This document shows positions 22,810 through 63,586 of a DNA stretch of 64,000 nt, in pieces. The position numbers and the translations under genes were made by a program. The notes under the pieces were generated by a model. It made no database searches. It saw nothing but the letters and a program-made list of their open reading frames with translations, and had not been told where the DNA came from. This DNA is from Opitutales bacterium (lineage in GTDB: Bacteria; Verrucomicrobiota; Verrucomicrobiia; Opitutales; UBA2995), in contig OZ219850.1 in NCBI GenBank assembly GCA_964291575.2, positions 170,808-234,807 of the forward strand, in the 5' to 3' direction. Positions within the stretch are counted from its first letter, which is position 1. Each line of letters begins with the position of its first letter.

Positions 22810-23102
22810 GTAACTACTCAGGTATCTTAAACAATCGCCCCATGGATGATTTATAGATAGTAAATTACTAACCTGTAGGAGGGGGTTTATCCCCCGATTG
22901 CAGTGAGGCACGTTTGGAAGATCGGGGGATAAACCCCCTCCTACAGTTCTCCAAGTCTTGTTGATTTTTCGATTATACCAATACTCCATTACTCCATCAT
23001 CCCCCCCCCTCATTCTTTGCGTCCTTTGCCTCTTGGCGGCTTTGCGAGAGACTCCTCTTCACGTTCCCCCTCAGGCTAGGCTATGGAGACCTGAGTAGTT
23101 AC
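22810..23102. mobile_element. MITE-like element, copy 2 (293 bp)
   Basis: Same TIRs as copy 1 (GTAACTACTCAGGT...ACCTGAGTAGTTAC). Perfect 8-bp flanking direct repeat GTTCTCTT (22802-22809 and 23103-23110). Perfect 26-bp internal hairpin. Confidence 0.85.
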
Positions 23103-24377: not shown

Positions 24378-24608
24378 CTAGTGTGGTGTCCCAGAAATTC
24401 CCTTGCACGCCCGTCGGGGTCATGCCGTAGAAAAGTGATGCCTTACGAAAGAAAAGGGTCGGGTCAAAAAAACTGTATTCCGTTGTACTCCATACACTTT
24501 TACAAGACGACCGATCCTGTAAGGCATAACTTTTTACGTCTTGACCCCTTCTCCCGCGACCTCGAAACTCGCAGTTTATGTGAATGAATTTACAGGACAC
24601 CACACTAG
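24378..24608. repeat. 231-bp element bounded by perfect 14-bp inverted repeats CTAGTGTGGTGTCC (family B), copy 1
   Basis: TIRs at 24378-24391 and 24595-24608. The core recurs in inverted orientation at 42641-42788. No clear target-site duplication. Confidence 0.7.
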
Positions 24609-34974: not shown

Positions 34975-35300
34975 TCGATTCTGGGTTACTCTCGCTACTT
35001 GTCACGCCGTAATCCATGAAGGCGGAAGCTCGCCAAGAGGCGCTAAGAGGCGCCTCCGGCGCCAGTGATCAGTGGTCAGTGAGCGCCATTATCTGCTTTC
35101 AGCAGAACAAGATCGCTTCGCGAGCAGTATTTAACGGAGGGCGGGTTTTCCAACCCGCCCATTCGTAGGGGCGAGGCATGCCTCGCCCACATTCCTTCAT
35201 GCCACGCCGTGAGGCGGGTCCCCTGGCGCCACAGGCGCCAATCGTGATCTTGATCTTGATCGTGATCTTGATCGAAAATCCCTGAGGAATTCCGTAGGAT
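34975..35300. repeat. mosaic word array with GC palindromes
   Basis: Contents: CTTGTCACGCCGTAATCCATGAAGGCGGAAGC, GGCGCC-TCC-GGCGCC, CAGTGGT units, hairpin GGGCGGGTT-TTCC-AACCCGCCC (35140-35161), perfect 20-nt palindrome GGGCGAGGCATGCCTCGCCC (35170-35189), (GATCAx)n. Confidence 0.85.
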
Positions 35301-40113: not shown

Positions 40114-42606
40114 CTATCTCCAGGTTTTTCGCAGTTCCGTCACCTGGGCCCGGGAGTGCCTGAGAAATTTGCCGGAAATGACTTCTTCCGGCCGGCCTTC
40201 CCAATTCCAGCGGATGTTGAAACTCCCCACACCGCCTGAAGACAGTTGGTAACGAACTTCCACGGGATAGGTTTCACCTTCTTCCATGTCCAGCACGGCG
40301 GTATGAAAACCGGGAAAATCATCCAGTTCCATCAATGGCCTGCCGTTGATGATGAGGGAGAGGGCTTGCTCAGTGCTCCCGGTAAAGGTGATCTCACCGG
40401 AATGAGGACCAACCAAAAAACCACTCCAGATTCCGCCCCAATCATTTCCTCGTTTTTCCACCGCGTTATCGTAATCGATGGACAGGGCATCCAGGGGATA
40501 TTCTCCCTGTGGGTTGAAGAAGGAGGAACTGCCGAAAAAGGTTCCAACCAACCCCGGCATTTTGGGATGGTGATAGTCGGCCGGCAAAACTGCGCCCGGG
40601 ATCGCAATTTCGAAACCCAGGCTATCCACCGGAAGCTCCTCGGTCAATTTTCCGCCCAGAGCTTTTTTCAGATGGGGCAAATCGTAGTGCAACAACACGC
40701 CGTGGGCCGCATTGGCCAGTTGGTGAAATGAGCGTTCCCTTTTCAATATACTCTCCCAGGAACCGAGGCAGTTTACCAACCGGGTTCGCCCGATGAGTCC
40801 CGGTTCCAGAAAGGCGGCGTGCAGAGCCGCTACGGCAATTTGACCTTCCCCATGCAAGTCCACCCCTCGCCGGTCCCCGCCCCGGGTGTAACGAACCGCC
40901 CTCAAAATATCTTCTACACGCATACCCAGATAGCTCTCCCCCAAGACATAGGCGCTCTGAATATCCTCCTGATCCGTTCCAAAGAAACCGCCCTGGGTGA
41001 CCTGAAATTTCTGAGCCGTTTCCCCTACTCCCCGGGGATCTGCCGCCACAACCGGTCTGCCCGATTTCGCCACCTCATCCAGCCAGCCTCCTTCATAGGC
41101 CGAGGCCCCGGCGCCCTCGGTGCTGACATACAGCAAGGGCTTTTCCCCATTGGCCTCAACAGGTCGCAGATCCAGTAGGGGCAGGAATAATCCTTCCTCC
41201 GTCTCCAGAAGTCCCTTGTGGATAGTGTAACCATCGCGCTCGACCCTTCCCATTTCATGATAAACCGGCCGGGGAATTTCCATGAGAGGACGGACCTTTA
41301 GAGCAGAGCGAACCAACCGACGTTTTCCCTCTTCCTCCAGGCCATCCCAAACCGAGTCCCGCCCCGATCGAGCGGCCTCCAGCTTTTCCCGGAACAAATC
41401 GAATATCGACCGGGCCCCTTCCACATCCATAACCTGTCCCCCGGGGGTAGCCCAAAGCTCTTCCGGGGTAAACAGATCGAGCGGCGGCTCAACAATGGTT
41501 TCCACCCGCCCCTTCAACCATTGATTGAACCAGCGCATGGCCGCTTCCCGCTGGGTGCGGTTATAATTGTGACCAGCGTTGTTCTCCAGAATGTCGGCCC
41601 GTTCGGAAAATCCGAGATCCGTGTAATGGCGCTTGATCCAGCGGAAACTTTCCCAAACCGCATCGATTTGGAAAAAGTCGTGGGTGGAGGCCAGGACCTT
41701 GACTGGCGCAGGGGCTCGCATCAAATAGAGGGAGGGTTGCTCGATCCCGCTGGACATCTGGCCAAAATGCATTTGCTCCCAGTCCCCCATGGAATCGTGG
41801 ATCTGCCGGCGCAACAAATGGAGCCAACAGCTGGGGGCAGCCACTTTCAGGCGATCATCCAGGGCGAAGATGAAAGAGGTCTGCGTCCCCCCGCCGCTAT
41901 TACCGGTAATCCCGAGCAAATCGGAGTCGACCTCGGGACGACTCGCCAGGTAATCCAGAGCCCGAATGCCATCCCAGGCGAAGTACTGCATGAGGCCTTC
42001 ACCCAGCAAGGTGGCTATAACCCCCTCCTGCATGTGCATGTGAGTGCCGTAGTAGGGCCTGCTCCCATCATCCCTCTGGTATTGCTGGCGCTCCCCTTGA
42101 TCCAGTGGATCGAAAACCAAACCGACCATCCCATTCAAAGCCAGCAATGCGCCCATGGACTGGTATTCGTCATGCGCCTTGGCCACGTGGGCATGGCCGC
42201 ATGGAACCAGAACACCGGGATAAGGAGGGGCAAATCTGCCACTTTCCGGCACATACAGATTGGCCGAGACCAGGAAATCCGGACGGCTTTCCATAAGGAC
42301 CTTCTCAACGCGGAATCCGGGACGGCGCAACACACCTGTCACTTGCGGTTTCAGAGGAGTCCTCTCGGGAAAGCCTCCCAACAATTCAATCATCTGCCCT
42401 CGCAAGGTCCGGTTGTGCTCTTCCCACCCGCCTTCCTCCTGCAGTCGAAGAAAATCCTCCTGCCAGTCCTCGTAGGCGGACAACAGCTTCTCCTTCATCC
42501 AAACCTCAACCATATCCCCGGGAATGACACCGTCCGGCAAGCGGTCCGGCACAACCCGCACTTCTTCCGCCGTCAGGTGAATCACACCCCCCACCAACAA
42601 AATCAT
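40114..42606 (-). CDS. exported alpha/beta-hydrolase (esterase/peptidase-like) with C-terminal PA14-like domain
   Basis: Nucleophile elbow ITGNSGGG. The C-terminal ~140 aa are PA14-like (GLVGTFFGSSSF...GETYPVEVRYQLSSGG). The track start at 42801 runs through repeat family B. ATG 42606 is preceded by AAGGGAG and gives MILLVGGVIHLTA. Confidence 0.65.
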   Translation of the reverse strand: MILLVGGVIHLTAEEVRVVPDRLPDGVIPGDMVEVWMKEKLLSAYEDWQEDFLRLQEEGGWEEHNRTLRGQMIELLGGFPERTPLKPQVTGVLRRPGFRVEKVLMESRPDFLVSANLYVPESGRFAPPYPGVLVPCGHAHVAKAHDEYQSMGALLALNGMVGLVFDPLDQGERQQYQRDDGSRPYYGTHMHMQEGVIATLLGEGLMQYFAWDGIRALDYLASRPEVDSDLLGITGNSGGGTQTSFIFALDDRLKVAAPSCWLHLLRRQIHDSMGDWEQMHFGQMSSGIEQPSLYLMRAPAPVKVLASTHDFFQIDAVWESFRWIKRHYTDLGFSERADILENNAGHNYNRTQREAAMRWFNQWLKGRVETIVEPPLDLFTPEELWATPGGQVMDVEGARSIFDLFREKLEAARSGRDSVWDGLEEEGKRRLVRSALKVRPLMEIPRPVYHEMGRVERDGYTIHKGLLETEEGLFLPLLDLRPVEANGEKPLLYVSTEGAGASAYEGGWLDEVAKSGRPVVAADPRGVGETAQKFQVTQGGFFGTDQEDIQSAYVLGESYLGMRVEDILRAVRYTRGGDRRGVDLHGEGQIAVAALHAAFLEPGLIGRTRLVNCLGSWESILKRERSFHQLANAAHGVLLHYDLPHLKKALGGKLTEELPVDSLGFEIAIPGAVLPADYHHPKMPGLVGTFFGSSSFFNPQGEYPLDALSIDYDNAVEKRGNDWGGIWSGFLVGPHSGEITFTGSTEQALSLIINGRPLMELDDFPGFHTAVLDMEEGETYPVEVRYQLSSGGVGSFNIRWNWEGRPEEVISGKFLRHSRAQVTELRKTWR

Positions 42607-42640
42607 CCCAAATAAGACTCCCTTTACCGCCCTGGATGGG

Positions 42641-42788
42641 CCGCGGGGGAAGGGGTCAAGACGTAAAAAGTTTTGCCTTACAGGGTCGGTCGTCTTGAAA
42701 AAGTGTATGGAGTACAACGGAATACAGTTTTTAAGACCCGACCCTTTTCTTTCGCAAGGCAGCACTTTTCTACGGCATGACCCACTAG
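42641..42788. repeat. family B element, truncated copy 2 (inverted relative to copy 1)
   Basis: CGCGGGGGAAGGGGTCAAGACGTAAAAAG...CTACGGCATGACCCACTAG aligns with the reverse complement of 24400-24560. Confidence 0.75.
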
Positions 42789-42797
42789 GAGGTCCCC

Positions 42798-44105
42798 TCA
42801 CCGATCGCCAATGGAACCGTCCGGCCAGCGATGTGCGCTCCAGTCCTTGGGTTTATAGGGCATTTTGGCCGCTACCTTTTCGTCCAGATCCAATCCGAGG
42901 CCAGGCCGGTCCGGCGGTAGCGCGAATCCATTTTCAAAGACTACACCTCCCCCATGAAAAAGGTCCTGGAAATAGGGAGACTGGCCTGAGCCAATTTCCA
43001 GTAAGGTGGCGTTGGGCGTGCTCATGCACACGTGCAGGCTGGCCATGGTGCTGACTTCGCTCTGGGGATTATGAGGGGACATTTCGATGCGGAATGCCTC
43101 CGCCAAAGCGGCAATTTTACGCATCTCCCCAATCCCTCCGCAATGGACCACGTCCGGGTTCACGTAATTCACCAAGTGCCGGGCGCAGATTTCAGTAAAC
43201 GCGTACTTGGTCAACAATCGTTCCCCTGTGGCCAAAGGCACGGCCGTTTGCGACCGAAGGAGAGCCAACTCGCCGATGTCTTCCTGCTGGGTCGCTTCCT
43301 CCACCCAGAAGGGATCATACTCCTCCGCTCGGCGGCAAAACTGAATCGCCATCGGGGTGGTCGGCTTCCCATGGGCATCGATCAAAATGTCGAAATCCGG
43401 GCCCACCGCTTCCCGTACCCGCCTGAGCCGGTCGATGGCCGTCCGAATCATCTTGGCCGGCTCGACCAGATTATTCTCGGCCTCGAGGAAACCGGCCTTG
43501 CAGGCGGTCCACCCCTGTTCCTTCCGTTTCAAGTACCTTTCCGGATATGAGAGCGGTTCGGGTTTCGGCGTTCCGGGAGGCTGGTGGTGATGCATGAGAA
43601 CGTTCCCGCTACGCACGTGCGGATAGACGCGGACTTTATCGCGTGCCTTTCCTCCCAGAAGTTTCCAGATAGGCTGTCCCAGCGCCTTTCCCAGAATATC
43701 CCACAAGGCGATCTCCACCGCACTGAGGGCGGAGGTGAGGATAGGACCGCCCCGGTAACGTGGGCCCCGGAACATACCCTGCCACAAGCGTTCGATATTG
43801 GTGGGGTCCTTACCTAGAAGATAGCGCTTGTGCTCCTGAATGGCCGCTTCCACCGTAAGTCCCTTGCCGGTCATGGTTCCTTCACCGAGACCGGTTATTC
43901 CCTGGTTGGTGTAGATCTTGACGTAAACGAAATTTTCGTCGTTTGCCGAATCGACAACAAAGGTCCGCAGGTCGGTAATTTCCAGGTTCAAGTCCTCCGC
44001 CCTGGCATAATGTGCTTCTGACTCCTTCGAGCGGGCCAGAAGGCTTTGCCTTGCCAAACCGGCCATTCCCGTAAGACCCAAACCCAAAAATTGGCGACGC
44101 TTCAT
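42798..44105 (-). CDS. enolase-superfamily dehydratase (mandelate racemase/galactonate-mannonate dehydratase-like) with a twin-arginine signal peptide
   Basis: 435 aa. MKRRQFLGLGLTGMAGLA Tat motif. MR/MLE N- and C-terminal domains (KIYTNQGITGLGEGT, DAHGK, EEATQQED, LATGERL). Confidence 0.8.
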   Translation of the reverse strand: MKRRQFLGLGLTGMAGLARQSLLARSKESEAHYARAEDLNLEITDLRTFVVDSANDENFVYVKIYTNQGITGLGEGTMTGKGLTVEAAIQEHKRYLLGKDPTNIERLWQGMFRGPRYRGGPILTSALSAVEIALWDILGKALGQPIWKLLGGKARDKVRVYPHVRSGNVLMHHHQPPGTPKPEPLSYPERYLKRKEQGWTACKAGFLEAENNLVEPAKMIRTAIDRLRRVREAVGPDFDILIDAHGKPTTPMAIQFCRRAEEYDPFWVEEATQQEDIGELALLRSQTAVPLATGERLLTKYAFTEICARHLVNYVNPDVVHCGGIGEMRKIAALAEAFRIEMSPHNPQSEVSTMASLHVCMSTPNATLLEIGSGQSPYFQDLFHGGGVVFENGFALPPDRPGLGLDLDEKVAAKMPYKPKDWSAHRWPDGSIGDR

Positions 44106-46088: not shown

Positions 46089-47252
46089 CTAGTGCTTGGA
46101 ACACTCCTTCATCAACTCGCGCAAGCCTATGGCAGAAGCGTCTCCTTCCAGCGGGTACGTTTCCGACCCATTGTAGAGAATGAATTTCCGGTTCGGTTTG
46201 AGATCCGAACACGCTCTCCTGAAATGGCTGCTTGGCTTGGGGGCCGACGTGCGCTTGATCTCTATTGCCCACAACTCTCCACCCGGGAACTGCAATAGTA
46301 AATCGATTTCCACACCCGTGGACGTTCGGTAGAAGTAAGCCTCCACATTTCTGGGCGCACTCGCCAGAAGGCTTTCGATAGCGAATCCCTCCCAACTCAT
46401 GCCAACCACCGGATGTGAGAACAGGGCTTCGCGATCTGAAATCCCCAGCAACTGGTGAACGATTCCGCTGTCCCGCACATAAACTTTTGGTGACTTCACC
46501 AACCGCTTGCCAGTGTTGGCATGCCACGGATGCAAACGCCTCAACAGGAGGAGATCTACCAGAAGATCCACATAACGGAAGATGGTAACACTGCTCACAT
46601 CTAGTCCCGAAGCCAGTTTTGCGGCATTCAGATTGCTTCCCTGCTGGTGAGCCAACATCGTCCAGAATCGACGCAAGGTGGTGGCAGGGACGCGAGGACC
46701 CAACTGAGGAATGTCACGCTCGAGATAGGTTCGGATGAAGTCCTCTCGCCAATCCACACTGACTTCGTTCGTCTCCGCCAATACGCTTCTGGGAAATCCA
46801 CCGCGAAGCCAAAGTGTATCGAGTTCAATCGACTCGACCTCCAGAGGGGTTACCCCCGTCAACTCAAGATACTGAATCCGGCCAGCCAGACTCTCGGAAG
46901 GCTGCTTGAGGAGATCGATCGATGCCGACCCAAGAATCAGATATCTGCCGTTGCCGGCACCTTTCATGCGAGCCCGATCGATCAGCCCTCTCAACACCGG
47001 AAACAGATCCGGCGCTCGGTGAATCTCATTGAGAATAACCAACTTGTCCAGGTGTCCTGAAAGGTAACTCAAAGGATCCTGCAACTTCGCCAAGTCCGCC
47101 GGACTTTCCATATCCAAGTAAATTGATGAAAGTACCTCAGAAACGTGATGGGCCAATGTCGTCTTTCCCACCTGACGAGGGCCAAGCAATGCCACAGCCG
47201 GATTATTTTTTAATCCGTTAGCAACCCGTGAGTACAATGCCCTTTCAATCAT
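46089..47252 (-). CDS. AAA+ ATPase with DUF4143-type C-terminal domain
   Basis: Walker A LLGPRQVGKTTLA. Typical AAA_14 plus DUF4143 architecture. The track start is TTG 47261; the first ATG is 47252. Confidence 0.8.
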   Translation of the reverse strand: MIERALYSRVANGLKNNPAVALLGPRQVGKTTLAHHVSEVLSSIYLDMESPADLAKLQDPLSYLSGHLDKLVILNEIHRAPDLFPVLRGLIDRARMKGAGNGRYLILGSASIDLLKQPSESLAGRIQYLELTGVTPLEVESIELDTLWLRGGFPRSVLAETNEVSVDWREDFIRTYLERDIPQLGPRVPATTLRRFWTMLAHQQGSNLNAAKLASGLDVSSVTIFRYVDLLVDLLLLRRLHPWHANTGKRLVKSPKVYVRDSGIVHQLLGISDREALFSHPVVGMSWEGFAIESLLASAPRNVEAYFYRTSTGVEIDLLLQFPGGELWAIEIKRTSAPKPSSHFRRACSDLKPNRKFILYNGSETYPLEGDASAIGLRELMKECSKH

Positions 47253-47253
47253 A

Positions 47254-47290
47254 CCTTGCAAATCTAATACGAAATGTTAGATTTGCAAGG
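47254..47290 (-). promoter_or_regulatory. perfect 14-bp hairpin abutting the ATPase start codon
   Basis: CCTTGCAAATCTAA (47254-47267), 9-nt loop, TTAGATTTGCAAGG (47277-47290). In mRNA sense the stem ends 1 nt before ATG 47252. Confidence 0.35.
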
Positions 47291-47549: not shown

Positions 47550-49292
47550 TTATTTTAATTCGCTCAGCTTGATCGTGCGCGAAAAAATCGGTTCGTCGTC
47601 GATGCTGACGATCTCGAACCGCATTTCGGGGTCATCCAGCCCGGTATGGAAATTCAGGACCCCGAAGGATGGCTTCTCGTTGTAGCCGAAGACGGCCCCC
47701 GGCATCAGGTCGGCCGTATGGATGTTGGTCAGCCGGGAACTCGACATTTCATAGAGGGGATAATCCCCCTCCCGATGGTTTATCCAAAAGTCGCTACGGT
47801 GCCGGTCCCCGGAGAGGAGAAGCACGCCCTCGATCCGGTTCCGGCCAAGGTAGCGGAAGATTTCTTCCCGTTCCTCGATGAACCCGTTCCAGGTATCTTT
47901 GCTTCCGGGTTTGGCTGCGGAAGCCCAGGCCACCGGCGAGGCGATAACCTTGAAGGCAGCCTTGGAGGCTTTCAGACCCGACAACAACCAATCCTTCTGA
48001 ACCGGGCCCAGCATGGTCTTCTCCTCCTTGTGCGGATTGGTCCGGTAAGTTCGGCCATCCAGCATGAAGATGTCCACGTCACCCAGGGAGAATTGGAACC
48101 AACAACCCGGCCAACCCGGCACGCCTCCTCCGGGATTTACCCAGTTGCGCTGAAATACTTCGACCATGGGCTGCTTCCAGACCGGCCTGTCTCTATACGG
48201 CCCCATCCAGACATCATCCGTGGCCGAATCGTGATCGTCCCAGATGGCGTATAGGGCGGTGGTATGCCCAAGTTTTCGGAAATCCGGTTGAGATTGACGG
48301 CGGTAGTAAGTGTAGCCGTGAAAGGCTCCCGGCATTTCCGGCATGTTGATGTAGACGTTGTCTCCCAGCAACAACATGGCGTCCAATTGCCGCGCCGCCA
48401 AAGTGGACCACATGTATTCATACTTGGGTGTGTAGCCGGCACATCCCCCTACACCGATCTTGAATGAACCCGAACTACCCATCTCCGGGTAGGTGCGGAA
48501 AGTGAGCCCGGCATCCCTCAGCACAGGAGCTCCATTCACCAACACATCATAGCGATACTGCGTGTCGGATTGCAGGCCTTCTACCGTCACTACAACAGTG
48601 TAATCCGCCCCGGCCTCGGCTCGACCCGAGGCTTTGGCTGCAAGCTGCCCGCCTTGGTCGAAACAGCGGACCTCCACCGTATCCTCTCCCATTGTCCTGA
48701 ACCAGAAACGGGCGCTTTCACTGGTTACCGACCCCAACATGGGCCCATGGATGAGACCGTCCCCCTTTTCCTCCGCCACAGCCTGAAATCGGGGAGAATT
48801 CGTAAGGTTTTTCAACAGATCCCTGGGACCGGCCAGGAAGCGGGAAAACTCCATACCGTTCTGCAAAGCCTTGCCCATGGATTCCATGGCTTTTCCGACT
48901 TCCCCCTTTACCGAATGAGCCACCGTCAGGATGAACCAGGACTCCGCGTCGGTGGCATCCTCCTCCAGGCGAAACTCGGCCAAAGAGATGGCTTCATCTA
49001 TGTCCCCTTCCAGAATCTTCAACAGTTGCCGTTGCCCCCGGCGCTTGTAGAGCATCTCCGCCCTCACCGCGGAAAACTGCCGCCGGGTCCATTCGTTTTC
49101 GCTACCGTAATAGGCGAAATCCGGATCCTCCACCCAGGCATCCTCCGGCGCGAATTGCCCATAGTTCTCGGCAATGGCTTTTATTTCCTCTACCGTCAGC
49201 GGCCTCGTGTCGCCCGCTTTGTTCCCCTGCGGATAAACCGCCGAACCAAGCAAAAGCACCGCCAGAACCAATATTGAGGAAATCAAGCGCAT
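47550..49292 (-). CDS. PhoD-like alkaline phosphatase/metallophosphatase, exported, with helical N-terminal domain
   Basis: LLLGDNVYIN, IWDDHDSATDD and LLLSGDRHRSDF metallophosphatase motifs. Signal peptide MRLISSILVLAVLLLGSAVYPQG. The track start at GTG 49361 lies in repeat DNA; ATG 49292 chosen. Confidence 0.85.
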   Translation of the reverse strand: MRLISSILVLAVLLLGSAVYPQGNKAGDTRPLTVEEIKAIAENYGQFAPEDAWVEDPDFAYYGSENEWTRRQFSAVRAEMLYKRRGQRQLLKILEGDIDEAISLAEFRLEEDATDAESWFILTVAHSVKGEVGKAMESMGKALQNGMEFSRFLAGPRDLLKNLTNSPRFQAVAEEKGDGLIHGPMLGSVTSESARFWFRTMGEDTVEVRCFDQGGQLAAKASGRAEAGADYTVVVTVEGLQSDTQYRYDVLVNGAPVLRDAGLTFRTYPEMGSSGSFKIGVGGCAGYTPKYEYMWSTLAARQLDAMLLLGDNVYINMPEMPGAFHGYTYYRRQSQPDFRKLGHTTALYAIWDDHDSATDDVWMGPYRDRPVWKQPMVEVFQRNWVNPGGGVPGWPGCWFQFSLGDVDIFMLDGRTYRTNPHKEEKTMLGPVQKDWLLSGLKASKAAFKVIASPVAWASAAKPGSKDTWNGFIEEREEIFRYLGRNRIEGVLLLSGDRHRSDFWINHREGDYPLYEMSSSRLTNIHTADLMPGAVFGYNEKPSFGVLNFHTGLDDPEMRFEIVSIDDEPIFSRTIKLSELK

Positions 49293-49981
49293 TTTGTAAT
49301 CGATCCTGAATAAGTTTTCATCGTTTCGGAAGGTTGGATAGTTCGGATTTTCTCGCGCCACTTGTCACGCCGTAATTCATGAAGGCGGAAGCACGCAAAG
49401 ACCGCTAAGAAGAAACCACAAAAAGCTCAAAAATCCCAAAAAGTTTTCTACAACTAACCACAGATTATACAGATTTACACGGATAAGGCGCCGCAGGCGC
49501 CCGCCTCTGTGTCTTTTCCACTATTATTTGGCCGTTAATCCTTTTATTGAAATTGTTGGGGGACAGGAATGTCCCCCCTCCTTTTTTAATCTGCGTTAAT
49601 CTGCGTCATCTGCGGTTCCTCTTCTCCTAATTCCCTGTCTTTGCGTTCTTGGCGATCTTCCGCCTTCAAGCGTTACGGCGTGACGTGTTGCGAGAGTTAA
49701 ATTAGTGAGAAGTGGAGAGATGCCAGGAATTAAGCCTTTAGCCTTCGTGCCTTCAATTCCTAATTCCCAATTCCTAATTCCTAATTCCTAATTCCTAATT
49801 GGCGCCCCCAGGCGCCTCTTATCCTGTGCATCCATGTTTAATTTTCGATCACGATCAAGATCACGATCAAGATCACGATTCCAAGAAATCTCAGCATCTC
49901 GGCAACTCAGCATCTCGGCATCTCTAATAATTCCTAATTCCTAATTGGCGCCCCCAGGCGCCTTTGTGCTCTGTGGTTAAT
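49293..49981. repeat. mosaic word array (~0.69 kb) including the shared leader cassette
   Basis: Contains nearly the whole vocabulary, including the longest (TTCCTAA)n run (49757-49800) and two TTGGCGCCCCCAGGCGCC hairpins. Confidence 0.9.
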
Positions 49982-52504
49982 TCATCTCTCCACAAAATGC
50001 ATGGCGTAGAGGCTGGCTCCACGCATTTTGAACTGCAGCCGAATGGCTTTACCGGCAAGGTGTCCCAAGTCCGACCTGGTTTTTCCCTCGAGGCTGAGGG
50101 TGGAGTGCCGCATTTGATTGGCCCTCAACCCTGCCAGATCCCGGAGGTCGGCCTCGCGGTTCAACCATTCCACTTCATGCCGGATAAAGTTGCCGTTGAT
50201 CCATATGCAGTTCTCGGCCTCATATCCGGGAATGGTCTTTCCTTCTTCATCCAGGATTCCAACCAGGCAATACCCGAGGGCGCGGGTATCGATATTCAGC
50301 TCCAGCCGGTTTCCATCAAAGGTTAGAGGACGGGTTACCACGGTTACTTCTCGATGGTAGGGAGTATCGGCCGAGACAAAACCATCCAGACGCTGCACCG
50401 CCCGATAAATTCCGTTTCCGGCTTTGTTGCGGACGGCAGGGGAATGATATTCCTCCTGCCCGTAGAAGTACTGCCAAATTTCATCGCCGCGCCGAATCAT
50501 TCCCTCCGACATGTAAATCTGGTGGATGTCGCGGTCCTGATAACGATCCATTGGAATATAGGCCGGCCGCATGAACCGCTTCCAGTTGACTCCATCCCGG
50601 CTTATCGCCACATGCGATTCCATGGTTCCCGAACCTTTCTTATAGGATGGGTGATAAAGAATGCGCCGGTTCAACGGCTGATGCGGCTCTTCGTAATCAT
50701 AATACATGGCCGGAAAAGAGATGTAGGCATCCTCGGCCCATGGGTACTTCATGCCCTTGGGAACATAGATCCCGCTCCCCCCGGGATCGACTGAAAGGTC
50801 CGGAGCGAATACGGTTGGCATTTCCACGCTGAAGTCGCCCGGAGTCAGGGGTCCGTTATCCATCCACCAGGGAATGGGCAATCGAAGCGGTCGCGTTTGC
50901 GCGATCTCGAGTGCTTCCTTTTGGGTCAGAGGATCGACCGGCCAGGGGGAGTAGATATCTGCCGTTTCGGAAAGGACGAACTGCCGGCTCGTTCCCCCTC
51001 CCGGGGTCATAGGATGTCCGGTGCGGTGATAACCCACATACAATTGCCGCTGATCGTCGTAGAATAAACTGGATTGGGAACCGGAACGAAAAGGTAGAAC
51101 CGCAGTGCGATGGCGCTGCCATTTCCATCCGTCCGGGGAGGTGTAGAGGTAAACGCCCCGGCCTTCCAAGCCGCTGACATACTTCCACCGGTGCTCGGGC
51201 GGTCCATTGGGATCGATTATGGGACGTCCCAGTGGCGCCGCTTCGGGAATGACGATATTCTTGTCGCCCTTCCAATGGTAACCGGTGTCCGGAGCTACAA
51301 AGTTCACCCCATCATGGGAAATACGAATGCCCAGGTAGTCGTCCGCCACCCCATGGTAGATGCGGATTATTCCCTGCTCATCCTCAATGACGGTCAGGTG
51401 CTTGCGGACCTGTCCCAGTAATCCTTCAACCACCCGGGTTATGTATTTGGGCTGATGGGTATTGAAGGTGATTCCACGGCTGGATTCAAAGAGGGAATCG
51501 TCCCAGAAAACGTGCTTTGATCCACCGAGATCCACCCTGCCGGATTTTGGAGAATCAGGTCCGAAACGAAGGGACGGTCCCTTCATCAGGGAAACTTCGG
51601 GAACGGAAGGAGCAAAGCTTCCCGGCGGTTGGAATCCATCTCGATAAACCATTCCCCTGGAAAAGCGTAGCTCGTCCAACATGCCCGGCAGTGGATCTCC
51701 CCAACGTCCGTTTCGCCCTACACTCATGTAGGACTCGTCGCCCCTTGGCAGTCGCTTCAGTTCGATTTTCTTACGATCCATTCGCTCGCCATCGGAGTAT
51801 AGGGTCATGACATCCCGGCTGGAATCAAACGTCAGGGCGAAATGATGCCACTGCCCATCCTGGAACGCCTCGGTTGCATACCCCAAGGAAACCTCGTTTC
51901 CGGACGTAGCGTTTTGGAATCCAAAGCGGCCTTGGACCGTATCCACGGTCAGTCGAGTATGGGTAGCGTTCTCCGCCCGAGGTCCGGTTCCGATTTCGAA
52001 GACGACTCCCTCTCCCTGGCGGTTTGGATGCCCCTTCAGCCATAACTCCACCGTCCAATCGAAATCCCCCAGATTCAGATCGGTCATGGAAGGATTGACA
52101 AAACCTACCTGTTTGCGCAGGTGGCGCTCTCCCCCGGTCATCAGGGCGGCAAATTCGGCGTTGTGCCAAGTGAGCGGGACCTGGGTTCGGCCGGGTGGTA
52201 TGGGCAATGGCTGAAGAGAGGCGGTGGCCTCACCCGTCTCCGGAATCTCTACCGGGGGATGGGGAACGGTCGACAAGGCGCGTCCCCATTTGCCAGCAGT
52301 GAGGGTTCCTCCCAACCCGAGGACCATGGGCGCATCCAATCCGGCGCTGGAGTCGAGTGTATGGCTTGGATACAACCACTCCGGCTCGTCGAAGAGCCAC
52401 AAGGCCACCGTCTCCGGCCTCATGTCGCCCGTTCTGTCCACCTGCGCGTAAGCCGGGCCAAGCAAAAGCGGCGCCAAGCATAATATTTGGGTAATCATTC
52501 GCAT
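49982..52504 (-). CDS. exported LamG/concanavalin-A-like lectin domain protein with a large GH-like (beta-propeller plus beta-sandwich) C-terminal region; function unknown
   Basis: 840 aa. Signal peptide MRMITQILCLAPLLLGPAYAQ. LamG-like block DWTVELWLKG...GQWHHFALTF...LDELRFS. The C-terminal ~120 aa resemble the beta-sandwich that follows GH32/GH43-type propellers (by eye). Confidence 0.6.
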   Translation of the reverse strand: MRMITQILCLAPLLLGPAYAQVDRTGDMRPETVALWLFDEPEWLYPSHTLDSSAGLDAPMVLGLGGTLTAGKWGRALSTVPHPPVEIPETGEATASLQPLPIPPGRTQVPLTWHNAEFAALMTGGERHLRKQVGFVNPSMTDLNLGDFDWTVELWLKGHPNRQGEGVVFEIGTGPRAENATHTRLTVDTVQGRFGFQNATSGNEVSLGYATEAFQDGQWHHFALTFDSSRDVMTLYSDGERMDRKKIELKRLPRGDESYMSVGRNGRWGDPLPGMLDELRFSRGMVYRDGFQPPGSFAPSVPEVSLMKGPSLRFGPDSPKSGRVDLGGSKHVFWDDSLFESSRGITFNTHQPKYITRVVEGLLGQVRKHLTVIEDEQGIIRIYHGVADDYLGIRISHDGVNFVAPDTGYHWKGDKNIVIPEAAPLGRPIIDPNGPPEHRWKYVSGLEGRGVYLYTSPDGWKWQRHRTAVLPFRSGSQSSLFYDDQRQLYVGYHRTGHPMTPGGGTSRQFVLSETADIYSPWPVDPLTQKEALEIAQTRPLRLPIPWWMDNGPLTPGDFSVEMPTVFAPDLSVDPGGSGIYVPKGMKYPWAEDAYISFPAMYYDYEEPHQPLNRRILYHPSYKKGSGTMESHVAISRDGVNWKRFMRPAYIPMDRYQDRDIHQIYMSEGMIRRGDEIWQYFYGQEEYHSPAVRNKAGNGIYRAVQRLDGFVSADTPYHREVTVVTRPLTFDGNRLELNIDTRALGYCLVGILDEEGKTIPGYEAENCIWINGNFIRHEVEWLNREADLRDLAGLRANQMRHSTLSLEGKTRSDLGHLAGKAIRLQFKMRGASLYAMHFVER

Positions 52505-52859
52505 AATTTATTCGATCAAGATAAAGTCATCATCGTTTCGGAGAATTGGATTGTCCTGAAATTCTCTCGCCACTTGTCACGCCGTAATTCATGAAGGCGG
52601 AAGCACGCAAAGACCGCTAAGAAGGAACCACAATTAAAGGCAGAAGGATGAAGGAAGAAGGCTGAATAGCCGCCATCTTGATCCTGATCGTGATCATGTT
52701 CGCAAATATAAAAGGGGAAAAGACTCACGCAAAGGTTAAGCACAAGCATCCGGAAATCAACTGACCATTTCCAAAACTGACCTCTGATAACTGAACTCTG
52801 CACACTGACAACTGGCGCCCCCGGCGCCTCTCCCTCTGTGTCCTCTGTGCTCTCTGTGG
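52505..52859. repeat. mosaic word array including the second copy of the leader cassette
   Basis: CACTTGTCACGCCGTAATTCATGAAGGCGGAAGCACGCAAAGACCGCTAAGAAGG, AGCCTT-type units, (GATCAx)n, CAGTT/CAGAGG units, GGCGCC-CCC-GGCGCC, CTCTGTGTCCTCTGTGCTCTCTGTGGTTA. Confidence 0.9.
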
Positions 52860-55265
52860 TTAATCTTCCAAAAACTGCATGGCGTAGAGATCCGTGCCCC
52901 GCATGTGGAAAACCAGGCGAACCGTTTTTCCAGCCAGGGCGGTGAGGTCCGTGCCCTTTTCCAACCATTCCACGGTATGTGCAACCGAGTTGGTATTGAT
53001 GTAGATACAATCCTCCAGTGCGTAACCCGGTATGGAATTTCCACCTTCATCGAGGATACCCACCTGGGCGTAACCAGCGGCGCCGGTGTCGATGTTCAAC
53101 ACCAAACGATTTCCCGTAAAGGTAAGGGGTAAAGTGGTGAAGCCGCCTCCGGTATAAGAGGTGCGAAGGGAAACAAACCCGTCCAATCGCTGGGTCAGCC
53201 GATGCGTAACCGGGCTGGGCGCATCCTCGGTCCAGGGATCGTGATAGGAGGCCCGCGTGTAGGAATACTGGAAAATCTCATTTCCCCGCCTGACCATGCC
53301 ATGGGCCAGATAAGGCCGCCTCACCGGAAAACCCTTATGGTCTCCGATGGGCAGATAGGCCGGCCTGGGATACCGTTTCCAACTCAATCCATCGCGGCTG
53401 ACCGCCAACTGGGGTTCCACCATGCCGGTGCCCATTTCCCGGCTGGGATGGGCCAGAATCTGCCGGGCCTGCGGTCCGTCTCCATGGTAGTGGAAAAACC
53501 AGAGCGGAAAAGCCAGGTAGGCGTCCTCCGCCCAAGGGTATTTGATAGCCCGAGTGTTGTAGAGATCGGTCGCCACCGGATCCAGATTCGGGTCCCGGCC
53601 CATGGCTATAGGGAACTCGACCCCGAAACCCGGAGGGGCCAGGGGTCCATTGTCCAGCCACCAGGGATCCCACTGCTCCACCTTCAGGGGCCGCTCCCGG
53701 TGGATTCGCAATGCCTTTTCCCGCGTGGTAGGCTCAAATTCCCAAGCCCCAAAAAGGTCCGTGACCTCCGTCCGCACAAAAAACCGCTCGGTCCGCCCGG
53801 AGGGAGTCGAGCCGTAGTCGGACCGATGATGTCCCAGATACACCTGGCGCTGGTCGTCGTAATACAGGGTCGAAGCCGACCCGGGCCAGAAGGGAAGCGC
53901 CGCCGTTTCACTGCGTTGAAAAGTCCACCCGTCGGGTGACGTCCAGATATACCAGCCTCCCCGGTCGTGCAGCCCTACCAATGCTTTCCATCGTTCCTCG
54001 GGCGGACCATTTGGATCGATGATAACGGAACCGGCTTTGGCCGGCCCGGGAATGACTTGGTTGCCCCGGCCATTGCCCAAATCCGGAGCTTCGAAATGAA
54101 GGCCATCCCGGGAGGTCCAAACGGCGACTCCTCCCGCGCCTTCACCGTAAAGCCTTATGAGTCCGTCATTGCCCTCGATCACAGTGGACCAACCAATTCC
54201 TCTATCCAGGACAATTTCTTCCAGTCGGGCCGGATGCGGGATCAGCCTTGCCCCCTCGCTCTCGGCCAGAAAAACGTCATCGAGGAAGAGATGCTTGCGG
54301 GAGCCCATTTCCACTACTCCGGAAGGAGCCCCGTTGCCCGAAAAGAGGAGTTCCCCTCCTTTTTTCAGGGTATAAGGTTTCCTGCCTGCCATATGCAGGC
54401 GCGAGTAACTTCCGGGAGGAGAAAAAGTTCCGGTATAATCGACACTGTCGGAAAAGCGTAGTTCATCGATAGCCCCGGGCAGGGGTCGGTTCCACAGTCC
54501 GTCCCGGGCAACGCTGAAGTAGGCCTCTTCCCCAATGGGGAGCGCCTGCAACAGGGCCGATGCTTCCGCCACCACCTCCCCGTTGAGATACCAAATCAAC
54601 CGGCCATTACCATGAGTGAGGGCATAGTGATTCCAACCATTTCCGATAGCATCCCGGGAACGGAGTTCCACAGTCCCTCCTCCAGCCCGGTTGTAGAAAC
54701 GGAGCTGATGTTCCTCCGGTATGACCGAAAGCCGGGTAACCCGGTCATTTTCCCCCCGGGGTCCACTGCCGATTTCAAATACCACTCCCTCCCCGGCAGC
54801 CCTCTCGTCCAGCTTCAACCAGAATTCAACCGTCCAGTCACCAGACCCGAGATTGAGGCCCGTCCGAGTGGCATTTTCAAACTCGAGCCGTCGCAAGTGC
54901 CTGTTCCCATTGGTAAACAGGGCGGCAAAGCGGTTATTGAACCAGGTCAAAGGTTCCACCGTGCGACCGGGTTGGAGCGCAGGAGCCTTCAATCCGAAGC
55001 GGATGTGGGTTTCCTCATTGGAGGGTTCGTAAACCGGCTCCCAATCCTCCGGTTCGACCGCGCCAAGAGCGCCGCCAAACTTCCCCGGCACGATGGACCC
55101 GCCCCGCCCCAAAATCAGGTGCAGGCCATTGGGGGTGGCATCCGAGAGCGGACAACTGGGATAAAGGCCTTCCTGCTCGTCAAACAACCATAGAGCCACC
55201 GTCTCGGCCCTGGACACGGGAACCGAAAGCAGCAGCAAAGCGGCGAAGGAAAATATTCGTTTCAT
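52860..55265 (-). CDS. paralogue of 49982..52504 (LamG domain plus GH-like region), exported
   Basis: 801 aa from ATG 55265 (MKRIFSFAALLLLSVPVSRA). Collinear similarity to the neighbour throughout (ETVALWLFDE, DWTVEFWLK, IDELRFS, KYPWAEDAY, RLDGFVS, LYAMQF). Confidence 0.6.
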   Translation of the reverse strand: MKRIFSFAALLLLSVPVSRAETVALWLFDEQEGLYPSCPLSDATPNGLHLILGRGGSIVPGKFGGALGAVEPEDWEPVYEPSNEETHIRFGLKAPALQPGRTVEPLTWFNNRFAALFTNGNRHLRRLEFENATRTGLNLGSGDWTVEFWLKLDERAAGEGVVFEIGSGPRGENDRVTRLSVIPEEHQLRFYNRAGGGTVELRSRDAIGNGWNHYALTHGNGRLIWYLNGEVVAEASALLQALPIGEEAYFSVARDGLWNRPLPGAIDELRFSDSVDYTGTFSPPGSYSRLHMAGRKPYTLKKGGELLFSGNGAPSGVVEMGSRKHLFLDDVFLAESEGARLIPHPARLEEIVLDRGIGWSTVIEGNDGLIRLYGEGAGGVAVWTSRDGLHFEAPDLGNGRGNQVIPGPAKAGSVIIDPNGPPEERWKALVGLHDRGGWYIWTSPDGWTFQRSETAALPFWPGSASTLYYDDQRQVYLGHHRSDYGSTPSGRTERFFVRTEVTDLFGAWEFEPTTREKALRIHRERPLKVEQWDPWWLDNGPLAPPGFGVEFPIAMGRDPNLDPVATDLYNTRAIKYPWAEDAYLAFPLWFFHYHGDGPQARQILAHPSREMGTGMVEPQLAVSRDGLSWKRYPRPAYLPIGDHKGFPVRRPYLAHGMVRRGNEIFQYSYTRASYHDPWTEDAPSPVTHRLTQRLDGFVSLRTSYTGGGFTTLPLTFTGNRLVLNIDTGAAGYAQVGILDEGGNSIPGYALEDCIYINTNSVAHTVEWLEKGTDLTALAGKTVRLVFHMRGTDLYAMQFLED

Positions 55266-56605: not shown

Positions 56606-56644
56606 GTAACTACTCAGGTAGTTTAAACAATGGTCCGTCCCAGG

Positions 56645-56733
56645 AAAAAGGGGTCAAACGCAAAATGTTGAAATCGACCGCTAACGTTCCCCCCACCATC
56701 CAGATTTTAACATTTTGCGTTTGACCCCTTTTT
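56645..56733. repeat. 89-nt near-perfect hairpin (family C), copy 1
   Basis: 31-nt arms AAAAAGGGGTCAAACGCAAAATGTTGAAATC / GATTTTAACATTTTGCGTTTGACCCCTTTTT with one G-T pair and a 27-nt loop. Preceded by a MITE left TIR at 56607. The right arm contains the sulfatase stop codon. Confidence 0.9.
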
Positions 56734-58080
56734 CAGGTCGCCAGGCGGAGGTTCGGACGCCTGCCCGCCAGCCGCTTCATCAAATTGGGGATTCGGCGCC
56801 ATTTCCTGAGCCCCGATCCGGCGGCGCCAGTCCCGCAATGCGGCGGACAGGGTCTCCACCAACTCGGGATATTCCCCGGCCAAGTCGTTTTCCTCCCAGG
56901 GATCCTCCTTCAGGTCGAAGAGTTCAAAAGCTGGAAACTCAGCTGAATTGCCCATACTCCCTTCAAACCACTCGATCAACTTGTGGTTTCCGCGAAGGGC
57001 CGAACCACAAGGCCCCAGCCCGGTGTGATGATAGTGTGGGTAGTGCCAGAAGAAAGTTCTCGGCTCATCAATTGCACCTTCCCCGGAAATAACAGGCAGC
57101 AGGTTCAACCCGTCCAGCTCTGCTTCCGGCAACCTCGCCCCCGTCATGGCCGCCAATGTGGGAAGCAGGTCGGCCAGGGAAACAGCCCCCTCAATGACGC
57201 GTCCCCCGTCCAAGCCCCCGGGCCACCGCATCAGGAAGGGCACGCGAAGCCCGCCCTCATAGAGGTCGGATTTGGCCCCTCGCCAGGGTTTGCGAACGTT
57301 GCTGTCGGCATAGGCGCCATGATCGGAGGTAAAAACGACAATGGTGTCCTCCCGCCCACCCGACTGGTCCAGAGCCTCCATCAACCGGCCAAACGCATCG
57401 TCCAACTCCGCCACCATGGCCGCCTGGGTTGGATGAACCCACTCCTTCTCCCGGGGAGGTTTGTTTTGAAAGCGTTCCAGGTAAGTCGATGGAGCTATCT
57501 CCGGACGGTGAATGGTGTTGTGAGCCAACACACACAGGAACGGCTTGTCGCGGGGTCGCCGGAGAAACTCAATGGTCCGGTCCGTCAGTTTCCGCACATT
57601 GTGGGCATCGTCCTCGGGATCGAAATGGGGCTTAGGCTTTAGCGTGACAAATACCTCGTCGAACCCATGGGATTCCGGATCCATGGGCCGGTGCCTCCGG
57701 TAATGGTAATCCTGCCCCAGGTGCCATTTTCCAATGTGAGCGGTTTCGTATCCCTGAGCTTTGAACACGTCTCCCAGGGTTTGCTCGTGAACCGGCAGTC
57801 CTTTTTGCCAATCCGGGGTAATCAAACGGGGATTGGCGGGAACGGTGCCCGGAATGTAATTGGTCAAATGCAGACGTGCCGGATGGCGCCCCGTGTAAAT
57901 CCCGGCCCGGGCCGGAGAGCAAACCGGCCCCGTGGCGTAAGCCCGGTCGAAGCGGATTCCCTTGCCGGCAAAAGCATCGAGATGCGGAGTCTCGTAGTAT
58001 CCGCTGCCGTAACAACCCAATTGGCAGGACGACAGATCATCCACGATGACCAGCAATATATTGGGATGGCTCCCCGTCAT
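56707..58080 (-). CDS. sulfatase (formylglycine-dependent) without a recognisable signal peptide
   Basis: 457 aa. ILLVIVDDLSSCQLGCYG and CSPARAGIYTG motifs. Starts directly MTGSHPNILLV. The last 8 residues KKGSNAKC and the TAA are encoded by the family C hairpin arm. Confidence 0.88.
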   Translation of the reverse strand: MTGSHPNILLVIVDDLSSCQLGCYGSGYYETPHLDAFAGKGIRFDRAYATGPVCSPARAGIYTGRHPARLHLTNYIPGTVPANPRLITPDWQKGLPVHEQTLGDVFKAQGYETAHIGKWHLGQDYHYRRHRPMDPESHGFDEVFVTLKPKPHFDPEDDAHNVRKLTDRTIEFLRRPRDKPFLCVLAHNTIHRPEIAPSTYLERFQNKPPREKEWVHPTQAAMVAELDDAFGRLMEALDQSGGREDTIVVFTSDHGAYADSNVRKPWRGAKSDLYEGGLRVPFLMRWPGGLDGGRVIEGAVSLADLLPTLAAMTGARLPEAELDGLNLLPVISGEGAIDEPRTFFWHYPHYHHTGLGPCGSALRGNHKLIEWFEGSMGNSAEFPAFELFDLKEDPWEENDLAGEYPELVETLSAALRDWRRRIGAQEMAPNPQFDEAAGGQASEPPPGDLKKGSNAKC

Positions 58081-58181
58081 TCCAATCCCCCTCTTGCCTT
58101 GTGTGACGACAGATCATCCACGATGACCAGCAATATATTGGGATGGCTCCCCGTCATTCCAATCCCCCTCTTGCCTTGTGT
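58028..58181. repeat. perfect 77-bp tandem duplication (2 copies) covering the sulfatase start codon, first 17 codons and 24 nt of leader
   Basis: 58028-58104 equals 58105-58181 base for base as read. Confidence 0.9.
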
Positions 58182-58215
58182 GCTTCTCGTGGCCATTTCC
58201 ACTTCTTGGACCAGG

Positions 58216-58302
58216 AAAAAGGGGTCAAACGCAAAATATTAAAATCCGATTGGCGGGGGGAAGTAGAGGAGGATTTCAACATTTTGCGTTTGACCCCTTT
58301 TT
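58216..58302. repeat. family C hairpin, copy 2 (inverted orientation)
   Basis: Arms at 58216-58246 and 58272-58302. The two mismatches are A-C on the plus strand, hence G-U on the minus strand. Confidence 0.9.
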
Positions 58303-58340
58303 CCCCTTTGCTTCTTGGCGGCTTTGCGAGAGACTCCTCT

Positions 58341-62641: not shown

Positions 62642-63586
62642 AAAAAATTTCTTGTTCGTGAAGCGATCCTGTTCCGGCGCGGCCGGATCAAGCGAAGCGT
62701 TGTCAGAAAAACTTTGCGATTCTTTGCCATTCTTTGCGTGCTTTGCGAGAGTCAAATTTGATCAGGATCAAGACTTTGCAGGGGACTGGAATGTCCTCTC
62801 TCCTTAATTCAATTGTAACTACTCAGGTCTCCAAAGCCTAGCCTGCATTTCTACCAAATTTTCATGGGATAGGGATGGAGGAGGGAGGATAAGGAATGAT
62901 GGAGTAATGGAGTGATGGAGTGATGGAGTATTGGAGTGATGGAGTGATGGAGTGATGGAATAATGGAATGTGGCGGAATCAGGATATAACGGAGAGGGGG
63001 TTTTCCATTGGATTTAACGGAGGGGGGACATTCCTGCCTGTCACGCCGGGAGGCGGATCCCCCATAACCCATAAAACAGGGGGTTGGAAACCCCCCTCTC
63101 CTTTAAATCCCAGTTGAAGAAAAAGGGGTCAAACGCAAAATGTTGAAATCGACCGCTAGCGTTCCCTCCTCCATCCAGATTTTAACATTTTGCGTTTGAC
63201 CCCTTTTTCGGTCGCACTCTCATTCTTTGCGTCCTTTGCCTCTTGGCGGCTTTGCGAGAGACTCCTCTTCACGTTTCCCTCCCAGTTGAAAATTCAATCC
63301 GTAATTATCCGTCCTCATCCGTGTAATCCGTGGTTGGTTCCTTTCAGCCTTTAGCCTTCAACCTTCAGCCTTTAGAATCCTTTGTGCCTTTGTGCCTTTG
63401 TGGATTCAATTCCTAATTCCTAATTGGCGCCAACGGAGCCTGTGCCTTCTTCTCTGCGATAATCTGCGTAATCTGCAGTTGGTGGTAAAAATTTTTTTGC
63501 GCTTTTTGTGCCTTTTGTGGTTCCCTTTTTCCTTACTGGCCGAAAAACCTGGCCGCGAAGCAACTGAATAGAACCATCCGTCCAAA
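62642..63586. repeat. mosaic word array (~0.95 kb) between divergent genes
   Basis: Inverted MITE right end at 62816, (GGAGTGATG)n, GGGGGGACATTCC palindrome half, AGGGGGTT-GGAA-ACCCCCCT hairpin, family C hairpin, CTTTGCG... word, CCGTGTAATCCGTGG, AGCCTTY units, TTTGTGCC x3, (TTCCTAA)n-TTGGCGCC, AATCTGCG units. Confidence 0.9.
63120..63208. repeat. family C hairpin, copy 3
   Basis: Same 31-nt arms as copy 1. The loop differs at a few positions. Confidence 0.9.

Follow-up and report, generated by a model that had tools for sequence, protein, structure and literature searches.

Several classes of short repeat and of shared gene 5' ends are known from bacteria. The repetitive extragenic palindromic (REP) sequences and bacterial interspersed mosaic elements (BIMEs) of enterobacteria, the neisserial intergenic mosaic elements (NIMEs) and dRS3 of Neisseria, and the Correia elements are short (40-150 nt), multi-copy, intergenic and found in both orientations, while mycobacterial interspersed repetitive units (MIRUs) and Rickettsia palindromic elements are repeats that overlap or enter coding sequence. 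Gene conversion in its textbook form operates between paralogues, and the vlp/vsp genes of Mycoplasma and the upstream homology box genes of Borrelia form large paralogous families that serve phase or antigenic variation. Here we describe a locus from an Opitutales bacterium (contig OZ219850.1) within a stretch of 64,000 nt, hereafter the window, in which a gene for a laminin G-like protein (LamG-B) has received its translation start and signal peptide from the adjacent, unrelated PhoD-like phosphatase gene, and in which the leaders of both genes carry a short dispersed repeat. The features concerned are as follows.

47550 to 49292, minus strand: PhoD-like phosphatase gene (DUF7800 plus PhoD), from domain search and orthologues.
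49200 to 49292, minus strand: PhoD codons 1-31, of donor type, comprising the native signal peptide and about nine mature residues (..QGNKAGDTRP); conserved in orthologues P0001-P0008.
49293 to 49345, minus strand: 3' half of the PhoD leader (..ATCCAACCTTCCGAAACGATGAAAACTTATTCAGGATCGATTACAAA), with the last 10 codons of a supposed upstream open reading frame (uORF) and the spacer; from nhmmer, 72% identical to its counterpart B.
49346 to 49421, minus strand: repeat copy A (TGTGGTTTCTTCTTAGCGGTCTTTGCGTG-CTTCCGCCTTCATGAATTACGGCGTGACAAGTGGCG..), with the supposed uORF from its ATG to about codon 10; 97% identity with copy B.
49318 to 49380, minus strand: 20-codon open reading frame (ORF) A (MNYGVTSGARKSELSNLPKR, then a stop), judged incidental.
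49982 to 52504, minus strand: LamG-B gene (Laminin_G_3, 840 aa), the graft recipient, from domain search and alignments.
52415 to 52504, minus strand: 30 PhoD-derived codons (MRMITQILCLAPLLLGPAYAQVDRTGDMRP) in place of the native LamG-B signal peptide; also in related loci L027 and L029.
52407 to 52414, minus strand: 3' junction of the graft (GAGACGGT), in microhomology.
52505 to 52557, minus strand: 3' half of the LamG-B leader, from the nhmmer profile and alignments.
52558 to 52633, minus strand: repeat copy B, upstream of LamG-B, from alignment to copy A.
52530 to 52592, minus strand: 20-codon ORF B (MNYGVTSGERISGQSNSPKR, then a stop), judged incidental.
52860 to 55265, minus strand: LamG-1, a paralogue 45% identical to LamG-B and equipped with a signal peptide of its own (MKRIFSFAALLLLSVPVSRA followed by ETVAL).

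The original prediction, made from the window alone, had noted that the regions before and at the start of these two genes align throughout, and this is correct. On the minus strand, 49421-49192 and 52633-52407 are homologous without interruption over ~220 bp by pairwise alignment, with a local alignment score of 132 (9.1 ± 1.2 in 1000 shuffles) and a longest exact match of 57 nt (49356-49412 = 52568-52624; no such match expected from shuffles). The original prediction was likewise accurate on the pair of 20-codon ORFs, on the spacer and on the homology of the N-termini. The mature proteins are indeed unrelated (PhoD plus DUF7800 versus Laminin_G_3), residues 1-34 alone being common to PhoD and LamG-B, and the shared part stops exactly where the mature LamG region (ETVALWLFDE) starts; the alignment of LamG-1 to LamG-B begins at RPETVALWLFDE.

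When copies A and B are compared by segment, the repeat word is 97% identical over 70 aligned positions, the 3' half of the uORF with the spacer 72% identical over 54 positions, and the signal-peptide codons 75% identical over 95 positions with one 3-nt indel. Each segment is significant alone, with z-scores of 45, 14 and 29, respectively. From these alignments we interpret the shared stretch as three layers: a dispersed repeat of ~60-75 nt, a leader portion of ~55 nt, and the first 30-31 codons of PhoD. Signal peptides share a compositional bias and so look alike, and a repeat-rich region can mislead assemblers; the similarity could thus be due to chance or to an assembly artefact. This is contradicted by the z-score of the signal-peptide codons taken alone, for which the observed score of 43 exceeds a maximum of 14 under a codon-shuffle null, a background the original prediction had itself asked to be considered, and by the extension of the homology into non-coding DNA. 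Moreover, the same arrangement is found in three independent assemblies, namely the window, L027 (a long-read contig from ENA) and L029 (from Logan), so the graft is not an artefact of one assembly. We give chance or artefact practically no credence.

The direction of transfer can be read from orthologues. In all PhoD orthologues at 70-91% identity, the signal peptide is immediately followed by ..(A/C)..KAGD(T/S)(R/K)P(L/Q)T.., and this N-terminus is therefore native to PhoD. The signal peptides of the LamG-B orthologues, more than 100 in number, are of ordinary type, bear no relation to one another and end ..A(A/E)ETVALWLFDE; the motif MRMIT...KAGxxR(P/L)ETV was found among these orthologues only in the window, in P0121/L029 (94%) and in L027 (89%). 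Taken together, a native PhoD N-terminus and otherwise unrelated LamG signal peptides indicate a one-way transfer from PhoD to LamG-B, and the comparisons show that the start region and signal peptide of LamG-B were replaced by a copy from the adjacent PhoD gene. The original prediction was thus right that one leader, start and signal peptide precede two unrelated mature proteins, but not that a cassette was grafted onto both, since PhoD is the native owner.

That prediction proposed a self-contained, transferable expression-and-export cassette made up of a promoter or leader, a regulatory uORF and a signal peptide. In its favour, leader, small ORF, spacer, start codon and signal peptide are all covered by one contiguous homology, the end of which coincides exactly with the N-terminus of mature LamG, and the two uORFs are of equal length. 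Against it, the unit has a single recipient, LamG-B, and a different signal peptide is found in over 100 LamG orthologues, among them the 94%-identical protein of L028. A PhoD-type signal peptide on a third gene family was sought with local tblastn and blastn in 364 kb of related loci, where it was found on PhoD and LamG-B only; further genes bearing the unit, which the prediction had proposed as a check, were thus not encountered there. A protein search with a concatenated 93-aa signal-peptide query returned nothing at E<=10, a result that is uninformative given the database size. Evidence from the repeat and the small ORF, given below, bears on the same proposal.

Dating the graft by comparison with relatives, as had been suggested, separates the window, L027 and L029, which have it, from L028, P0122-P0127, L030 and over 100 other LamG orthologues, which do not. 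The mature LamG-B proteins of the window, L028 and L029 are 94-95% identical, with L027 at 89-91%, P0122 at 84% and L030 at 79%, and L027 is syntenic with the window across sulfatase, LamG-1, LamG-B, PhoD and MR_MLE. The graft is a recent event, seen only in a small clade of closely related genomes. The ungrafted L028 gene encodes MKPHLFKACGIALGLFQGACFTVSAAETV, similar to the signal peptide of P0122, yet its DNA is 97% identical to the window in alignment columns 150-299, just after GGAGACGGT (the first full comparison interval past the junction). The sequences favour a single origin of the graft, because the grafted LamG-B copies share LAP and QV residues that occur in no PhoD.

Two observations on the surrounding genes are recorded here. 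PhoD orthologues at 58-72% identity (P0005-P0013) have a lipoprotein-type Cys (..AGC followed by QK..), at the site of which the window clade has Tyr (..AVYPQ or AAYAQ; window 49220-49240, PhoD codons ~18-24), and this suggests a switch of PhoD in that clade from a lipoprotein signal to a putative Sec/signal peptidase I-type signal. A gene for an AAA_14/DUF4143 ATPase (46089-47261, minus strand) lies between PhoD and MR_MLE in the window and in L028, though not in L027; it represents a lineage-specific insertion, the block being syntenic apart from it.

At the 3' junction in the window, AGGCCG is followed by GAGACGGT (between 52415 and 52414). PhoD reads ..GGCCGC(A/T)GACGGTA at this point and ancestral LamG reads ..GGCGGAGACGGTT (also ..GCGGAGACGGTT), so that over the (E/Q/L)TV codons the two have (G)AGACGGT in common, a microhomology of 7-9 nt. 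Further upstream, the shared words CCGAAACGATGA(A/T)A and CGAGAGTCCATTCC stand at the proposed anchor, and the ungrafted LamG-B leader of L028 already has the PhoD-type words CGAGAGTCCATTCC and CCGAAACGATGAAA. LamG-B has the proximal leader, start codon, signal peptide and ~9 mature residues of PhoD in place of its native start region and signal peptide; in our proposed mechanism, these came from the PhoD 5' region through non-reciprocal recombination, that is gene conversion. The upstream end of the conversion would lie in repeat sequence already present in both leaders and the downstream end in the (G)AGACGGT microhomology of 7-9 nt. As a consequence, LamG-B would now be translated and exported by way of the PhoD initiation region and a predicted Sec-type signal peptide (..AYA followed by Q). 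Overall, a 5'-end replacement by gene conversion anchored in the repeat is probably what took place.

The leaders appear to have been remodelled since. In the repeat-word segment, the two leaders of the window match at 97%, as do those of L027, but comparison across the two genomes gives only 49-50% identity, because they hold different modules at this place; for the signal-peptide codons, identity among these copies is 75-86% whichever pair is compared. In L027 the duplicated tract reaches ~250 nt further upstream, mostly at >90% identity. The distal 76 nt may have become near-identical because one leader was later converted by the other, or because a recent module replacement was common to both; the likeness within each genome would then reflect conversion between leaders after speciation or, equivalently, parallel replacement from one source. 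In L028, the LamG-B ATG (205-225) lies inside CCGAAACGATGAAA, the same 14-mer as in the window PhoD leader, and the PhoD GTG (3060-3075) lies inside CTCTGTGGTTAA. Repeat modules thus seem to supply or overwrite gene starts.

The upstream part of the shared stretch has a wider distribution. Its core of ~60 nt (..CTTxGCG..CTTCCGCCTTCATG(G/A)ATTACGGCGTGACAAGTGGCGAGAG) occurs four times in the window, in both orientations. Besides copies A and B, these are the following, listed with the gene next to the first of them.

34987 to 35046, minus strand: third core copy (85%), directed at the 3' end of the TonB-receptor gene listed next.
32063 to 34957, plus strand: the convergent TonB-receptor gene beside the third copy.
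49639 to 49698, plus strand: fourth core copy, diverged (80%) and inverted, lying 227 nt upstream of copy A and reading AAG where the other copies have ATG.

The third copy confirms a partial copy that had been placed at about 34985-35017, and it leads no gene because it is aimed into the TonB-receptor gene; the fourth had gone unnoticed. When one genome per species was scanned, 26 exact cores turned up, all of them in five metagenome-assembled genomes (MAGs) of Opitutales/Opitutia (14, 4, 3, 3 and 2), and three more exact cores came from JGI metagenomes, too little diversity for a covariance model. The core was found in no viral contig by scan, and plasmids gave no match by blastn. ATGGAT is present in 25 of the 30 exact copies; A and B have in common the rare variant ATGAAT.

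Approximately 10 copies extend to a long form of ~130 nt ending ..GACTTTTTCAGGGTCGAC, to which both window leaders belong, and the 3' half of the PhoD leader is homologous to the 3' half of this long form. An nhmmer profile of it matched L007-L010, L018, L020, L023, L025 and L027 as well as both window copies. The orientation of copies relative to neighbouring genes is mixed, with roughly half of them, long forms included (among these L009, L010 and L020), facing the 3' ends of convergent genes. The same-strand genes that follow copies are unrelated (Gfo/Idh/MocA, MR_MLE, PLD, HipA, FAD oxidoreductases, aldehyde dehydrogenase), and none of the same-strand genes following repeat copies elsewhere has a PhoD-type signal peptide, which counts against a cassette, as do the copies that face convergent 3' ends. 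We counted 54 direct-repeat families in the window, and the leaders of the window and its relatives are assembled from shared repeat words; the "empty" L027 leader differs from that of the window by replacement of modules and not by a clean insertion. The repeat is thus multi-copy, intergenic, found in both orientations and mosaic with other short words, as is usual for dispersed repeats. No terminal inverted repeats are evident in the long-form alignments, and no RAYT-type transposase was seen in the window, although no search aimed at one was made. A stable palindrome is likewise missing, the 64-nt core giving a fold z-score of +0.6 with only a short CGCC/GGCG stem predicted. A literature search on intergenic repeats of Verrucomicrobia found nothing relevant. 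The copy alignments show that the upstream sequence of both genes is best read as a member of a clade-specific dispersed intergenic repeat family of Opitutales, and not as part of a cassette.

In two genomes a well-conserved core stands head-to-head with a diverged inverted partner 92-227 nt upstream (L025, 292-337 minus and 429-488 plus; window, 49350-49409 minus and 49639-49698 plus), possibly a composite arrangement or one resembling miniature inverted-repeat transposable elements (MITEs).

The 20-codon ORF had been taken for a conserved uORF, and on this point the relatives disagree. The core and its ORF are absent from the orthologous leaders of L027, L029 and L028: both L027 leaders hold another module (CTTTGCGAGAGTCCATTCCCAATTCC..) at the core position, that of L029 retains the last ~16 nt only, and the L028 PhoD leader is altogether different. 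Among repeat copies elsewhere, the ORF read from the core ATG ranges from 10 to 50 codons, and 1-nt indels occur within it among the long forms. Between ORFs A and B, codons 9-17 have nine base changes, of which seven are nonsynonymous, and just upstream of the ORF A ATG is a pyrimidine-rich CTTCCGCCTTC without a purine-rich run of Shine-Dalgarno (SD) type. The 20-codon ORF is most likely a by-product of the ATG in the repeat core and incidental, judging by its variation among copies. With a uORF part missing from the orthologous leaders and an ORF whose length and frame vary among copies, the cassette proposal is largely refuted, and we consider it very improbable.

Alternatively, the long form could be a cis-regulatory element of the 5' untranslated region (UTR), such as a structured RNA, an attenuator or a protein-binding leader, belonging to a co-regulated regulon. 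It ends a few to ~40 nt before several start codons, namely those of window PhoD and LamG-B, three genes of L027, the aldehyde dehydrogenase genes of L008 and L018 and MR_MLE of L025. Its core is nearly invariant across species, in L020 and L023 extra sequence is inserted at a single defined site, as would be expected of a variable stem, and one weak long-range pairing has two pairs with compensatory changes. Nevertheless, a search of the whole window against Rfam 15 matched no family at the gathering score, and nothing relevant came up at E<=1 in 49000-53000, where the only hit was a chance match inside the LamG gene. Both leaders, three long forms and the core fold no better than shuffles (z-scores of +1.9 to -1.1), and RNAalifold on eight long forms gave no covariation signal (term +0.2, about 0), a comparison of little power in that most paired columns are invariant. 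The position in a 5' UTR is inconsistent, with the L009, L010 and L020 long forms facing convergent genes, and the functions of downstream genes are unrelated. Scanning found no sigma-70-like promoter match in either leader and no minus-strand terminator-like site in either (five in 49150-50000, all on the plus strand, and none in 52400-52900). By eye, a sigma-54 promoter and a Pho box were also considered in the core and rejected on misfitting spacings and half-sites. The structured-RNA reading of the long form is weakened by these results, and a cis-regulatory element of any of the above kinds seems to us unlikely, if somewhat less so than the cassette.

We return to 5'-end replacement and a dispersed repeat, two unrelated processes that together account for the shared stretch with no functional mobile cassette; we hold this joint account with considerable confidence. 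Several points weigh against it. The repeat anchor is deduced from present-day leaders that have since been remodelled, and the original upstream breakpoint is invisible. The ungrafted L028 is nested among grafted genomes, which requires allelic recombination or polymorphism, or else recurrent grafting, the latter being a live alternative to a single origin; the relatedness of grafted and ungrafted genomes is here a matter of percent identities only. The core is almost invariant across species-level genomes, which suggests some sequence-specific function, such as a protein-binding site, a promoter element or a transposase target. Finally, five of the ~10 long forms have ORFs of 20-22 codons ending near the same TGA, and a small ORF might yet be translated in some repeat copies.

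Other repeats in the window are noted here in their own right. A perfect 77-nt tandem duplication (58028-58104, 58105-58181), whose unit comprises 24 nt upstream and the first 53 nt of a sulfatase gene (56707-58080, minus strand), leaves a truncated copy of 26 codons (MTGSHPNILLVIVDDLSSHKARGGLE, then a stop) just upstream of the real sulfatase start, and is either very recent or an assembly artefact. A 145-nt element occurs in two copies of 94% identity (24417-24561, plus strand; 42639-42783, minus strand), forms one long hairpin on either strand (z-scores of -3.4 to -5.8) and is MITE-like, with no Rfam match; its second copy overlaps the over-extended 5' end of the ORF at 40114-42801. A palindromic repeat of ~91 nt (GAAAAAGGGGTCAAACGCAAAATGTT ... 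AACATTTTGCGTTTGACCCCTTTTTC) is present in at least three places (56644-56734, 63119-63209, 58215-58304) at 90-97% identity. A REP-like hairpin module, CTGTAGGAG(C/G)GG(C/G)TTTA(C/T)(G/C)CCGCGATT..., which we presume to resemble Pseudomonas REP sequences, is found in the window (14409-14502, 22864-22957) and in L027 (6660-6700, 9815-9855), the two window copies differing on both arms. The intergenic spacers of the window, 250-700 nt long, are made up, nearly throughout, of short repeat words that other Opitutales MAGs also have (AATTCCTAATT with GGCGCCnnnnGGCGCC, GATCAAGATCACGATC, CAGTGGTCAGTGG, TCCATCACTCC, CTCTGTG(G/C)TC.. and CTTTGCG/CTTGGCG), whereas the more distant relatives L030 and L035 have the same genes as compact operons with spacers of 0-60 nt and without spacers of such words.

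On the account favoured here, the locus would be a clean and datable case in which a single step gave an exported enzyme both a new signal peptide and a new translation start, with an unrelated neighbour as the source and only a dispersed repeat and a 7-nt microhomology as guides. It would imply that, in polysaccharide-degrading Verrucomicrobiota, the 5' ends of genes are reshaped by intergenic mosaics of repeats, which is of relevance to start-codon annotation and to the prediction of localisation in such MAGs; it does not amount to a new regulatory or export system. A broader scenario is that undescribed, near-invariant and non-palindromic modules expanded compact sugar-utilisation operons and act as portable homology patches that repeatedly drive the exchange of starts and signal peptides between neighbours, with polymorphism at the strain level. 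Candidate examples of such module-driven exchange are the grafted and ungrafted LamG-B alleles and the L028 PhoD start within a repeat word, and the modules may also have a sequence-specific function, as a promoter element or a protein-binding site, that would explain their conservation. We offer this broader scenario tentatively, as a possibility on which we would not rely.

Among known systems, the locus does not qualify as a uORF or attenuator, as a riboswitch-like leader, or as a cassette family of the vlp/vsp type. Like the trpL and ermCL leader peptides, it has a short ATG-initiated ORF that precedes the main gene and follows a putative transcript start; unlike them, it lacks a purine-rich SD-like run, alternative hairpins and a terminator, neither the peptide nor its length is conserved, and the orthologous leaders have no such ORF. 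It shares with the vlp/vsp and upstream homology box families a common upstream region and signal peptide before divergent mature sequences, but it involves two enzymes and a single donor, with no sign of a switching mechanism. As with MIRUs and the Rickettsia elements, repeat words abut or supply start codons (L028 PhoD, L028 LamG-B), although no in-frame insertion into a mature protein and no overlap with the stops or starts of flanking genes was seen here. The repeat resembles REP/BIME and the Neisseria elements in forming mosaics with other words and in its capacity to be a homology patch for recombination or gene replacement. It differs from REP/BIME in that its core is no stable palindrome (fold z-score about 0), is conserved almost base-for-base across several species-level genomes, and has a low number of exact copies (4-14 per MAG).

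The graft itself compares most closely with partial duplication or ectopic gene conversion, in that leader, start codon and signal peptide were copied in one direction with a breakpoint in microhomology, and in that the leaders keep homogenising within each genome. As in known cases of 5'-end replacement, donor and recipient are distinguishable by their orthologues, the breakpoints lie in microhomology, and the arrangement recurs in independent assemblies. In contrast to textbook gene conversion, the proteins here are unrelated, and the only homology available would have been the upstream repeat and 7-9 nt downstream. While 5'-end replacement is a known process, what is unusual in this graft is that unrelated proteins were linked through a repeat and a microhomology.

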